A stretch of DNA of 64,000 nucleotides, from the NCBI GenBank assembly GCA_039028615.1, contig JBCCHT010000015.1, positions 1 to 64,000 on the forward strand, written 5' to 3'. The stretch is from Myxococcota bacterium (GTDB lineage: Bacteria > Myxococcota_A > Polyangia > Nannocystales > Nannocystaceae). A program made the translations under genes and the position numbers. The notes under the pieces were generated by a model. The model was not told the origin of the DNA. It made no database searches and was given only the letters and a program-made list of their open reading frames with translations. The stretch's first letter is position 1, and every line of letters starts with the position of its first letter. Below, piece after piece: positions 11,189 to 33,845 of the stretch.

Positions 11189-13654
11189 TCACGGGATCCA
11201 AGACCAGACCTGCACCTCGAAGAAGCGAACGAGTTCCTTCGAGAACGCCTCCCACACGAGCAACGACGGACCGTCGACCTTGGCGAAACCCGTCATGCCA
11301 TTCCGTAGTTTCTCTTCGTGGTCATCGTCGACCAGGGCGATGACCTTGAGGACGTTGCCGAACTTTTCTTCGGTGACGTCCCAGTCGATGTGCACGACCG
11401 TGGCCGCGAAGGTCTCGGAGCTGTAGGCCACGGCCTTGAGCTGGACGGTCGAGCCCACGCCGACGTGCCCGGCCTCCGACTCGGGGAGCTCGATCTCGGC
11501 GGTCATGCGGCCCAGTGCTTCGACCTGAGCGAACACGTCGCCGCTGCGATAGTAGCTGTTGCCCTTCTCCCGCAGGCGCAGTGACAAGAGTCGACCGTCG
11601 AAGGGCATCGTCAGCTGCGAGCGACGAATGCGATCGAGGTGGACCTCTCGCTGGGCGGCGAGCGTTCGAAGCTTCGCTTCGGCCTCGGCGACCTCGAACT
11701 CGGTGGGGCCGAGCTTGGCCACTTCGAGCTCGGCCCGGCGTCGCTTGACCTGGTCGAGGTCGACCGAGAGCTGACGCTCCGCTTCGTCGTATTCCTGCTG
11801 GGAGACCACTTCATCGCCCAGCAGGCTCTTGACGCGACTGAAGGAGAGGCGACTGAACTTGACACGAGTGCGGGCCACGGTGAGCGCGCTTTGGGCGACC
11901 TCGATGTCTTGGGACCTTGGGTATAGGGCGAAGTCATCGATCACGGCCTGCTGCTCGGCCATCTTCTGGTCGAGGATCTCGACCTGCGCTTCGTCCTCGT
12001 GAGTGGCGAGCTGGGCGATCACGGTGCCTTTGGCCAGCGTCTCGCCGCCATCGAAGTACACGGTCTCGATGCGTCCCGAGACGTCGGTCGTGATGCCCTG
12101 CTGCAGCGGTGGGTGTACGACGAAGTGACCGCCCGCACGGTACTCGTAGGGCAGGAACATCAATACTGCGAGCGTGAACAGGCCCGCCTTCCACGCGTAG
12201 CTGGCGAAGCCTCGCGGCGGCTTGCCTTCGATGATCCCCTCGCGGTCTTCGCCTAGCGTGCGGCTGCGCCAGCGGTCGAACTGCAGGGCGCGATCGTAGG
12301 CCTGCTCGACGCGCGAGAAGTAGCTGAGCACGCGTCGTAGGATGATGAAGCCCACGATGACGCCGATGATCACCGTGCTGCCGCCCAGCTCGACTCGGTT
12401 GAGCACGAACGCCACCCCGCCCACGACCAGCAGGAACATGAACGCGGCCGTGGCGGCGGCGTAGGTGGCCAGCAACAGCTCGTTGGCTTGCTTGAAGCCG
12501 CGCCCGCGCGCCTTGTTGAGCAGGGTCTTGAACGCCTTGCCGCGCAGGTGAGGCTCGTCGGTGAACGCGGAGAGGAGGTGGTAGCCGTTGCTCTTGATCA
12601 GCGGGTTGGCGGTGAACAGCAGGCTGAACGCGGCCGTGAACGACACGGCCAGCGCGAACCGGGACACCTCGCCATAAAACCCCTTCGAGCCGAACCACAC
12701 GAACATCCCGGCGCTGAAGATCGCCAGGCGCAGGAGCATGGGGGCCCCGTGCAGCCACATGCGCTCGACTCGAGACAGCTGTGCGAGGTGGCCGATGCGG
12801 GTCCCGAAGCGAGGATAGATGCCCAAGAGCAGGACGATGCCGAAGGCGCTGACCGTGGCTCGGAAGCGATGGGCGAGCATGGCCGTGGTGCACACGACGG
12901 CCAGGTTCACGGTGAGGAGGCTTATTACCCAGTGCTCGACCAGATCGAAGCCCTCGAGCATGACGACCAGCTCGGCGTAGAGGGGCTGCGCATTGCGGGC
13001 GGCGAGCATGAGGGCCCCCACGGCCACCAGCGGCAGGACGAGCAAGAGGTGCCGCAGGGGAGCGAGCAGGGGAGTGAACAAGCGCAGCAGGAGGGTGGGG
13101 TCGAACAACACCAGCATCCACCGCGTGGCGCGGGGGTCGAAGTCGATCGCGTCCTGCATGCCCGCGACCAAGGTCTCGTCCGCGTCGACCTTGGTATTGC
13201 CGGTCCCCGGTGGCGTCGCGGCCGTTGCTGCGGCCACGCTGGCGCTGGCCGATGCAACCTTGGCGCGCTGTGACACCGCGGTCGCGCGCTCGCCCTCGAC
13301 CTGGTAGGTCTTGCGGAAGAATCGCTCGAGCAAGGGGTGCTTGGTGGCGGCCTCGTTCAGCAGCTTGGCGTCGGCGAGCGAGGCCAATAGCTCGTCTCGC
13401 TCGGCTCGCAGCAGTTTGCGGCCAAAGCGGTCCTCGAACACGCCCTGCAGCGTCTGCTCGTCTTTGCAGCCCGGCAGCACCTCGAGCACGAAGAACTGCC
13501 AGGGCTCCAGGTCGTAGCTCTTGCCCTTGACCTTGTCGCGCAGCACGAAGGTCTGACGATCGTCCTCGCCGACGCGGAACGACTGCAGGCGCTGAACGAG
13601 GTGGGCGGGGGTGGCTACCCGACTCGGCGGCGTGGAGTTTTGTGGGTCACTCAT
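11189..13654 (-). CDS. HlyD-type membrane fusion protein fused to an N-terminal PqqD-like and M50-like multi-TM domain
   Basis: About 8 hydrophobic segments, the M50-like ANPLIKSNGYHLL, lipoyl/biotinyl-like ITTDVSGRIETVYFDGGETLAKGTVIAQL, a coiled-coil hairpin, LTMPFDG and LRNGMTG. Confidence 0.8.
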   Translation of the reverse strand: MSDPQNSTPPSRVATPAHLVQRLQSFRVGEDDRQTFVLRDKVKGKSYDLEPWQFFVLEVLPGCKDEQTLQGVFEDRFGRKLLRAERDELLASLADAKLLNEAATKHPLLERFFRKTYQVEGERATAVSQRAKVASASASVAAATAATPPGTGNTKVDADETLVAGMQDAIDFDPRATRWMLVLFDPTLLLRLFTPLLAPLRHLLLVLPLVAVGALMLAARNAQPLYAELVVMLEGFDLVEHWVISLLTVNLAVVCTTAMLAHRFRATVSAFGIVLLLGIYPRFGTRIGHLAQLSRVERMWLHGAPMLLRLAIFSAGMFVWFGSKGFYGEVSRFALAVSFTAAFSLLFTANPLIKSNGYHLLSAFTDEPHLRGKAFKTLLNKARGRGFKQANELLLATYAAATAAFMFLLVVGGVAFVLNRVELGGSTVIIGVIVGFIILRRVLSYFSRVEQAYDRALQFDRWRSRTLGEDREGIIEGKPPRGFASYAWKAGLFTLAVLMFLPYEYRAGGHFVVHPPLQQGITTDVSGRIETVYFDGGETLAKGTVIAQLATHEDEAQVEILDQKMAEQQAVIDDFALYPRSQDIEVAQSALTVARTRVKFSRLSFSRVKSLLGDEVVSQQEYDEAERQLSVDLDQVKRRRAELEVAKLGPTEFEVAEAEAKLRTLAAQREVHLDRIRRSQLTMPFDGRLLSLRLREKGNSYYRSGDVFAQVEALGRMTAEIELPESEAGHVGVGSTVQLKAVAYSSETFAATVVHIDWDVTEEKFGNVLKVIALVDDDHEEKLRNGMTGFAKVDGPSLLVWEAFSKELVRFFEVQVWSWIP

Positions 13655-33845: not shown

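Follow-up and report, generated by a model that had tools for sequence, protein, structure and literature searches.

A conserved eleven-gene operon of a Myxococcota bacterium that may make and export a sulfated long-chain lipid

What is made by an operon that joins two large polyketide synthase (PKS) genes to a sulfotransferase (ST), two enzymes of the alkaline phosphatase (AlkP) fold and a putative export protein, and in what chemical form would its product leave the cell? Such an operon lies on contig JBCCHT010000015.1 of a Myxococcota bacterium, within the 64,000 nt analysed here (the window, to which the operon coordinates refer), and the initial annotation had described it as a self-contained gene set for a sulfated or phosphorylated, exported polyketide lipid. 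Our favoured reading, which we hold tentatively, is that a long-chain lipid is synthesised and exported with its O-sulfate still in place. This reading starts from catalytic residues that are intact, from an established gene order and co-occurrence of genes, and from an ST of established class.

The eleven open reading frames (ORFs) are all co-oriented on the minus strand, from 33845 to 11189. ATGA overlaps join PKS1 to PKS2, PKS2 to the gene for a free-standing acyl carrier protein (ACP), the latter to the first AlkP-fold gene, and the esterase gene to the second, ‘sulfatase-like’ AlkP-fold gene; TGATG overlaps join hydrolase to propeller and ST to helical protein. Propeller and esterase overlap by 29 nt, given a GTG start at 16747, and the three remaining junctions are gaps of 4, 9 and 11 nt. 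All ten junctions were confirmed from the sequence, so that the description as eleven coupled genes stands. The identical 11-gene order was found again in two other genomes (G002 and G019); the arrangement is therefore not due to chance, an explanation that we consider ruled out, and the gene set is real and intact. Scans with Pfam and NCBIfam confirmed the earlier domain calls, with qualifications for the M50-like and sulfatase-like labels that are given below. Each tailoring gene occurs as a single copy in the host genome (12.27 Mb, 68% G+C, 94 contigs). The operon is not self-contained, since it has no TolC gene, the host genes (cys) for the supply of 3′-phosphoadenosine 5′-phosphosulfate (PAPS) are found on contigs C7 and C69, and the boundaries that had been given leave out a linked patatin gene.

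Table 1. Features of the operon and its upstream flank, in window coordinates. KS, ketosynthase; AT, acyltransferase; KR, ketoreductase; DH, dehydratase; ER, enoylreductase; PPTase, phosphopantetheinyl transferase; NPP, nucleotide pyrophosphatase/phosphodiesterase.
Feature	Position	Strand	Basis
Membrane protein fused to HlyD-type adaptor (M50/HlyD fusion), 821 aa	11189..13654	-	HlyD Pfam matches
Helical protein, no known family, 144 aa	13666..14100	-	position after ST; complex model
PAPS-dependent ST, CurM/OLS (ACP-directed) type, 301 aa	14100..15005	-	PF13469 Sulfotransfer_3, E 2e-25
Second AlkP-superfamily enzyme (STM4013-like), 274 aa, Thr41 nucleophile	15015..15839	-	NF038075, E 2e-18, below cut-off
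HSL/BD-FAE-type esterase, N-terminal lipoprotein-like signal	15836..16747	-	PF20434, E 1e-24
Beta-propeller, no known family, 484 aa, highly conserved	16719..18173	-	structure model
Alpha/beta hydrolase, 296 aa, GTG start, Ser98-Asp122-His264 triad	18173..19063	-	PF00561
AlkP-superfamily (NPP-like) enzyme, 530 aa, Thr52 nucleophile	19068..20660	-	PF01663, E 6e-43
Free-standing ACP, 97 aa, alternative start 20956	20657..20950	-	weak NCBIfam matches, NF003757 E 2e-5
PKS2, 1544 aa: active KS, non-malonyl AT, DH, C-terminal PPTase	20947..25581	-	Pfam/NCBIfam
PKS1, 2755 aa: pseudo-ER, active FabK/PfaD-type ER, KS, malonyl-AT, one ACP, KR, DH	25578..33845	-	Pfam/NCBIfam
Intergenic region, AT-rich, probable promoter region	33846..34135	-	sequence
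Patatin-like acyl hydrolase just upstream of PKS1, start uncertain	34136..35677	-	PF01734, E 2e-21

A metagenome scan gave 128 matches, 80 of which were kept; with 12 genome regions they make up 92 loci, 69 of them distinct at 95% propeller identity, with G+C contents of 0.36–0.72. Among the 38 loci of at least 15 kb, PKS genes were seen in at least 37, the M50/HlyD fusion in at least 32, the hydrolase in at least 31, the ST in at least 25, AlkP in at least 23, the helical protein in at least 20 and TolC in at least 15. A search from the PKS side matched 4 of 400 genomes, one weakly (G371) and three strongly, and the latter all carry the ACP, AlkP, hydrolase, propeller, ST, second AlkP-fold and M50/HlyD genes. 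The synteny of the tailoring genes with the PKS pair is thereby borne out across several phyla; its absence, which had been named as a ground for giving up the proposal, was not encountered. For the propeller there are 1996 homologues. The top 120 are 67–82% identical to it (self excluded), and named homologues belong to the beta-, gamma- and alphaproteobacteria, Myxococcota, Nitrospirota and Scalindua. Its distribution is patchy: it was found in 2 of 60 relatives, 300 genomes of the phylum gave one full-length and one weak match, and it occurs in 2 of 399 other genomes of the class of Ideonella (one genome unscored), a genus whose cultured, non-pathogenic strains carry one cluster variant, that with the ACP-ST fusion. 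No plasmid match was found for the propeller, nor for PKS2 at a strict E of 1e-100.

PKS1 is probably an iterative synthase of the ArsA/PfaA kind. Against TIGR02813 (PfaA) it scores 1060 bits in a protein search (cut-off 1010) and 770 bits, under the cut-off, in a six-frame search. Its KS Cys/His/His and AT Ser/His residues are kept in 13 of 13 aligned sequences, as is an Arg at Ser+25 of the AT, and the KR Tyr and DH His are present in all 12 that cover them. Both ER domains are of the NMO/FabK type; the catalytic His is missing from the first and present in the second throughout (13/13 each). These conserved residues and the TIGR02813 match support the earlier proposal of a Pfa/Ars-like iterative long-chain synthase. 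A single ACP was found in all 12 full-length sequences, and more distant orthologues have three (G739) and four (G578), so that the single in-cis ACP, once taken as a distinguishing mark, is not one. In PKS2 the KS triad is kept in 31 of 31 sequences. Its AT retains Ser and His, has Ile or Val in place of the malonyl-binding Arg at Ser+25 in 30 of 31, and reads GEG instead of GQG in all 31. By established AT chemistry, an AT that lacks this Arg is unlikely to load malonyl. The Arg-less AT of the heterocyst glycolipid (Hgl) pathway is thought to transfer the chain to a separate ACP, and the AT of PKS2 likely hands a long acyl chain over in this way, most simply to the free ACP; such a likely long-chain transacylase is new here. 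The PPTase of PKS2 has both the P1a x(G/D)xP and the P1b′ hShxH motif, the latter type occurring in 25 of 32 aligned sequences, and the free ACP has its Ser42 in 35 of 35. By Pfam, NCBIfam and residue alignments, PKS1 and PKS2 contain no chain-length factor (CLF) and their DH domains are of the PS-DH type; the Pfam and NCBIfam scans gave no chalcone-synthase (type III PKS) match among the eleven proteins.

By architecture and PPTase motifs, the core of the operon is a secondary-lipid synthase resembling the Types M, N and O that Shulse and Allen catalogued in 2011 (PMC3098273) from Frankia, S. avermitilis, Chryseobacterium, Chitinophaga, Dinoroseobacter, Gloeobacter and Parvularcula, and whose product is left uncharacterised in that survey. 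Shared are an ER-KS-MAT-ACPn-KR gene, a KS-AT-PPTase gene without CLF and a free ACP (PMC3098273, Table S1), as well as the hShxH motif (PMC3098273), and the PKS architecture is accordingly not new. Types M/N/O are described there as a synthase core (PMC3098273), whereas the AlkP, propeller, ST, partner, esterase and export genes belong to this operon; the DH domains, which are not listed for these types (PMC3098273), were found here by newer Pfam models. Named Type O strains are not among the best 120 of 1272 propeller homologues, and alphaproteobacterial ones are. The full-text literature searched, in which few subscription papers were covered, yielded no characterised product for the gene set, in agreement with the initial annotation.

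ArsA and ArsD, which make the C22–26 chains of Azotobacter phenolic lipids for downstream enzymes (Type P; PMC3098273), resemble the two synthases in their ER-KS-MAT-ACP-KR order and separate PPTase-bearing partner, and also in the one ACP listed for ArsA, which therefore does not mark a difference from ars. The operon nevertheless differs in that PKS1 and PKS2 overlap by ATGA with no genes between them, the KS and non-malonyl AT are fused ahead of DH-PPTase, and sulfation, AlkP and export genes are present; as no type III PKS lies between the synthase genes, we rejected an ars phenolic-lipid operon. A polyunsaturated fatty acid (PUFA) synthase was rejected because there is neither a KS-CLF didomain nor a FabA-like DH pair, despite the PfaA-like KS-AT score, and an enediyne PKSE-like synthase because PKS2 contains neither an ACP nor a KR in cis. 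Elsewhere in the host genome there is a pfa-type cluster (G000:C14:180576-197790) with a 568-aa gene, a 2308-aa PfaA-like protein with four ACPs and a 2882-aa partner, which is probably its PUFA synthase. From the Hgl pathway the operon differs by the absence of CLF, reductase release domain, glycosyltransferase and ABC pump and by the presence of an ST; the two share a Pfa-like iterative synthase, release through a separate ACP and, with DevBCA-HgdD, export by TolC and adaptor (bioRxiv 2024.05.17.594646). The swf cluster of sponge symbionts pairs a single-module type I PKS/fatty acid synthase with an ST and is predicted to make an alkyl sulfate, its product being unknown (PMC3908369). It was rejected since the operon lacks its architecture, in which SwfA is KS-AT-DH-ER-KR-ACP and SwfB a reductase-ST (PMC3908369).

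The evidence for sulfate begins with the ST, whose sole matches in the PDB are the CurM ST 4gbm and 4gox, which we take to be the olefin synthase (OLS) ST (E about 1e-18). Residues R12, S13, T15, S16, E33, K114, R142, H143 and S150 are kept in 19 of 19 sequences, at positions that presumably serve PAPS binding and catalysis (Glu/Lys) as in the CurM ST. The helical protein directly follows the ST in 15 of 15 loci that carry both. A model of their complex scored 0.81, with 0.00 for the best control, against a mark that 116 of 157 solved pairs reach, as do 2 of 215 mismatched ones, and that is approximate here, where our own alignments were used. At least 75% of the contacts agreed between runs (partner pLDDT 56–66), and interface residues are conserved, namely D183 (19/19) and N190 (18/19) of the ST and R17 (19/20) of the partner. 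The model supports the helical protein as a predicted subunit bound to the ST. It has no Pfam, Atlas or fold match, and its own fold was modelled with low confidence (pTM 0.37); its 77 homologues at 50% clustering include 19 that were scanned, none with a meaningful Pfam family. Some members of the family (P0121, P0163-P0197) are about 250 aa long and contain two matching stretches, a tandem duplication.

Eight of the 92 loci (5 of the 38 of at least 15 kb; raw counts), from about six unrelated lineages, have a cysD, cysN or cysC gene next to the cluster. The cys genes directly follow ST, partner and esterase in two genomes (G826 and G1133), and in G002 they follow the M50/HlyD and patatin genes, alongside a 589-aa membrane permease. 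This cysDNC association favours sulfate. Together with the CurM-type match and the ACP-ST fusion described next, it upholds the proposed anionic modification, with sulfate favoured over phosphate.

In 43 loci the view takes in the hydrolase as well as the PKS2 end. AlkP lies between the two in 32 of them, where the gap measures about 1.9 kb (G1066, 7 kb), and none of the 32 shows an ACP-ST fusion in view. Eleven loci are AlkP-less: the fusion is in view in six and elsewhere in the genome in four, and one is a 5.7-kb contig. Genome-wide, the fusion is missing from 8 of 8 AlkP genomes and AlkP, in a search with a positive control, from 5 of 5 fusion genomes; the second AlkP-fold gene is likewise missing from all four AlkP-less genomes that were tested, where the positive control was found. 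The fusion matches the CurM ST at E 1e-58 and 4gox at E 8e-57, and its ACP is 46–50% identical to the free ACP and of the same family. A propeller tree of 42 sequences, from which the near-duplicate loci L059 and L111 were left out, requires four changes for the AlkP-less state, and a single clade for the ten short-branch AlkP-less sequences was rejected (p-AU 1e-5). The mutual replacement of ACP plus AlkP and ACP-ST fusion suggests a role for the AlkP-fold enzyme in adding a second anionic group; acting on the free ACP, it may stand in for the fused ST. G002 contains a different fusion (L153:5451-6845, G002:C118), in which a CurM-type ST is joined to an unrelated carrier domain; it lies in an NRPS-like region, upstream of an aminotransferase-like gene, and belongs to another pathway.

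The same class of ST raises the question of whether the sulfate stays. In CurM and OLS, ACP, ST and thioesterase (TE) are fused at the end of a PKS module; the operon has an ACP, an ST of that class and a Ser-Asp-His hydrolase as separate genes. The hydrolase, whose triad is kept in 51 of 51 sequences, is a core gene seen in 66 of 92 loci and is likely a thioesterase or release enzyme. A beta-hydroxyacyl-ACP might accordingly be sulfated (or activated by AlkP) and then hydrolysed, decarboxylated and stripped of sulfate by the hydrolase, which would leave a long-chain terminal alkene, possibly with one sulfate remaining. The close match of the ACP-ST fusion to CurM and the core status of the hydrolase fit this alternative. 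However, the operon ST is divergent and has a predicted partner, and the hydrolase is not recognisably CurM-TE-like: its nearest solved structures are generic esterases and lactonases, and the CurM TE is neither among the best 60 of 111 PDB hits of its profile nor among its 22 single-sequence PDB matches. Cryptic sulfation would also leave unexplained the propeller, the ST partner, both AlkP-fold enzymes, the secreted esterase and the exporter, all of them beyond CurM/OLS, and we consider it unlikely.

Does AlkP itself transfer sulfate or phosphate? Thr52 aligns with the Thr of NPP enzymes, the nearest solved relatives are NPP phosphodiesterases, and the Sulfatase family of Pfam is matched at E 0.014. 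Across 32 sequences D11, T52, D219, H223, D278, H279, H431 and H432 are invariant where present, and hydropathy indicates no transmembrane (TM) segment. The second AlkP-fold enzyme has weak PF00884 and PF01663 matches and a Thr41-x-Pro-Ser-His motif in 15 of 15 sequences; between the two enzymes there is no significant similarity (probability 6.7%). Formylglycine sulfatases were rejected for both, as (C/S)xPxR is absent and the Thr is present (Thr52 in 31 of 31 covering sequences, Thr41 in 15 of 15). Of the ‘sulfatase-like’ label the AlkP-superfamily fold remains and the formylglycine type, with its CxPxR, does not. A mixed head group is thus conceivable, in which the ST adds sulfate and AlkP acts as an NPP-like phosphotransferase, giving a sulfated and phosphorylated (or phosphodiester) lipid here and a disulfate analogue in ACP-ST clusters. 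The Thr nucleophile, the full set of metal ligands and the far better PF01663 match argue for it; yet all eight cys-adjacent loci bear AlkP or the sulfatase-like gene and not the ACP-ST fusion, and no nucleotidyltransferase, kinase or head-group donor gene recurs among the neighbours examined. There is moreover a precedent for sulfation by the AlkP fold in Halobacterium, where the AlkP-superfamily proteins Agl30 and Agl31 are genetically required for glycan sulfation in vivo (PMC11980604). These are likened to AlkP by fold class and differ in being archaeal and in acting on a dolichol-linked glycan (PMC11980604). On balance we regard a mixed head group as quite unlikely.

The propeller has no family match, yet it folds as a beta-propeller (pLDDT 87, pTM 0.90), and its fold matches are tied, generic and non-specific (Z 24–27). 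An ‘exo-alpha-sialidase’ label, which is an automatic cluster name, was not adopted. His35, Arg119, Arg175, Glu233, Arg361 and Arg439 lie on the first strands of the blades and are kept in 59–60 of 60 close relatives at 67–81% identity; they suggest a candidate anion-binding site. CylK and BrtB couple chains through alkyl chlorides. By analogy, a sulfated alkyl chain might serve as the electrophile and the propeller might displace its sulfate with the carboxylate or hydroxyl of a second chain, to form an ester- or ether-linked two-chain lipid. The operon does encode two KS, both of them active, along with two AT, two DH and two types of ACP; G1066 has propeller and ST duplicated together, and in G578 they are neighbours. 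The blades carry the conserved Arg/His/Glu set on their first strands, and the fold search also matched CylK (Z 24.3, rmsd 3.8, 336 aligned). This match, however, ranks 34th, below many generic propellers, is no better than those of generic WD40 propellers and has 10% identity, and PKS2 alone lacks an in-cis ACP, a KR and a malonyl-AT with which to build a second chain. Sulfate-driven coupling is in our view distinctly improbable.

The last steps concern export. The esterase is probably extracytoplasmic, as its orthologues have signal-peptide-like N-termini by visual inspection; in 10 of 92 loci its slot holds an unrelated esterase of the polyhydroxybutyrate-depolymerase type, and in one clade (L045, L046, L051, L052, L061, L073 and L112) two tandem esterases follow the propeller. 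The M50/HlyD fusion has HlyD Pfam domains in 20 of 20 orthologues and at least four TM segments. Its M50 resemblance comes from one weak match to NF041824 (daptide intramembrane protease, E 5e-6), and the HExxH zinc motif is present in 0 of 20 orthologues, which led us to reject an active M50 site-2 protease. The HlyD part of the earlier label therefore stands and the M50 part does not; the protein is a probable export component with a protease-dead, M50-like membrane part. A TolC-type gene was seen in 15 of the 38 longer loci, and at least six OEP/TolC-type loci are present elsewhere in the host genome. A dedicated exporter and a secreted esterase would suit a charged amphiphile better than a hydrocarbon. 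That the lipid instead anchors or modifies another exported molecule (protein, peptide or glycan), with the N-terminal domain of the fusion as a peptide-recognition element, would fit the daptide-protease similarity but is very unlikely, since 20 members gave no PqqD/RRE family match at E up to 0.5, neither precursor peptides nor glycosyltransferases recur in the neighbourhoods examined, and the sole small family-less protein models as the partner of the ST.

For the favoured reading, an exported lipid that keeps its O-sulfate, we propose the following route. The PPTase of PKS2 would activate both ACPs, and PKS1 would, like ArsA, be a fatty-acid-like type I synthase that runs the complete KS-AT-KR-DH-ER cycle iteratively. 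The KS of PKS2 would take the chain and extend it, probably once or a few times, and the non-malonyl AT would pass it to the free ACP. The CurM-type ST, with the helical protein as bound subunit, would sulfate a hydroxyl from PAPS, and the AlkP-fold enzyme, with or without the second one, would put a second anionic group on the intermediate bound to the free ACP; in AlkP-less clusters the ACP-ST fusion would take this step, and the second group would most likely be sulfate. The hydrolase would free the product, the propeller would work on an anionic intermediate, and the M50/HlyD fusion, together with a TolC encoded elsewhere, would export the lipid, which the secreted esterase may trim or recycle. 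A combined reading would go further: the Thr-nucleophile AlkP as an ACP-directed sulfotransferase swappable with a CurM-type ST, a second ST that needs its helical subunit, a new propeller family that couples two long chains via an alkyl sulfate electrophile, and export through a TolC duct and a dead-protease/adaptor fusion with no recognisable pump, all of it across phyla. We give this combination little credence.

Several points weigh against a retained sulfate and its proposed route. Sulfate is a leaving group for the CurM and OLS sulfotransferases (PMC3908369) and so may not persist. In the 19 aligned ST sequences the Gly of the 5′-phosphosulfate-binding (5′-PSB) loop is Tyr or Phe and the position of the CurM His is Cys, Asn or Met, and the ST copy in G578 is degenerate, with no Pfam match. 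No cys genes adjoin the cluster in 84 of 92 loci, and those of the host are on other contigs. The Thr/two-metal site of AlkP classically points to phospho-chemistry. The swap comprises four of four independent pairs in the same direction (L102 left out), which is not significant (sign test, p 0.125), and the absence of AlkP or fusion from metagenome loci holds within view only. Finally, the operon has neither TolC nor an energised pump.

With this work, the catalogued Type M/N/O core gains a conserved tailoring and export set and a chemical prediction, a sulfur-containing anionic lipid. The synthase core was already known; new here are the AT without Arg, the CurM-like ST with its predicted partner, the cysDNC link and the AlkP/ACP-ST swap. 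ACP plus AlkP versus ACP-ST amounts to a natural swap experiment, and swap and ST partner make the product and two enzyme roles testable. An AlkP that is truly an ACP-directed sulfotransferase would be a new kind of enzyme in polyketide biosynthesis, with whose help Thr-type ‘phosphodiesterase’ and ‘sulfatase-like’ genes beside sulfotransferases could be re-annotated. Alkyl sulfates escape standard lipid analysis by saponification and methylation (PMC3908369), and a widespread lipid class could therefore have been overlooked.

Upstream of PKS1, the intergenic region has one sigma70-like site at 33959-33930 (1 found, 0.4 expected; not significant). The patatin gene beyond it is a single copy in the host genome. 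Orthologues lie next to the cluster in G002 (54%) and G019 (48%) but in none of the other 90 of the 92 loci, so that it may be a lineage-specific twelfth gene of the cluster.

Several related clusters depart from the common layout. The distant cluster of G371 (L151-L152, G371:C16) has a PKS1-like gene split before the KR, an AT-DH partner and then a Sulfotransfer_3 gene, with no KS match in the scanned part of the partner and none of the other tailoring genes. In G1066 (L148-L149, G1066:C39) there are two STs, two propellers, a methyltransferase and a TPR protein, and the closest named relatives of its propellers are alphaproteobacterial. G578 (L138-L139, G578:C2, and L154) has its four ACPs in a PKS1 of two ORFs and the degenerate ST beside the propeller, with an ACP-ST fusion on another contig. 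Two loci (L082:11934-12304 and L083:12012-12427) have an extra segment of about 130 residues in the M50/HlyD fusion and about 500 bp between ST and partner, and the seven loci of the tandem-esterase clade carry unrelated genes between M50/HlyD and propeller, upstream of PKS1. Elsewhere in the window, the minus strand encodes a vanadium-haloperoxidase-like protein at 43904-45649 (VCPO_2nd, E 1e-48; DUF6851, E 3e-47) and, at 2008-3306, a class I terpene synthase-like protein (PF19086, E 8e-8) that is unrelated to the operon.

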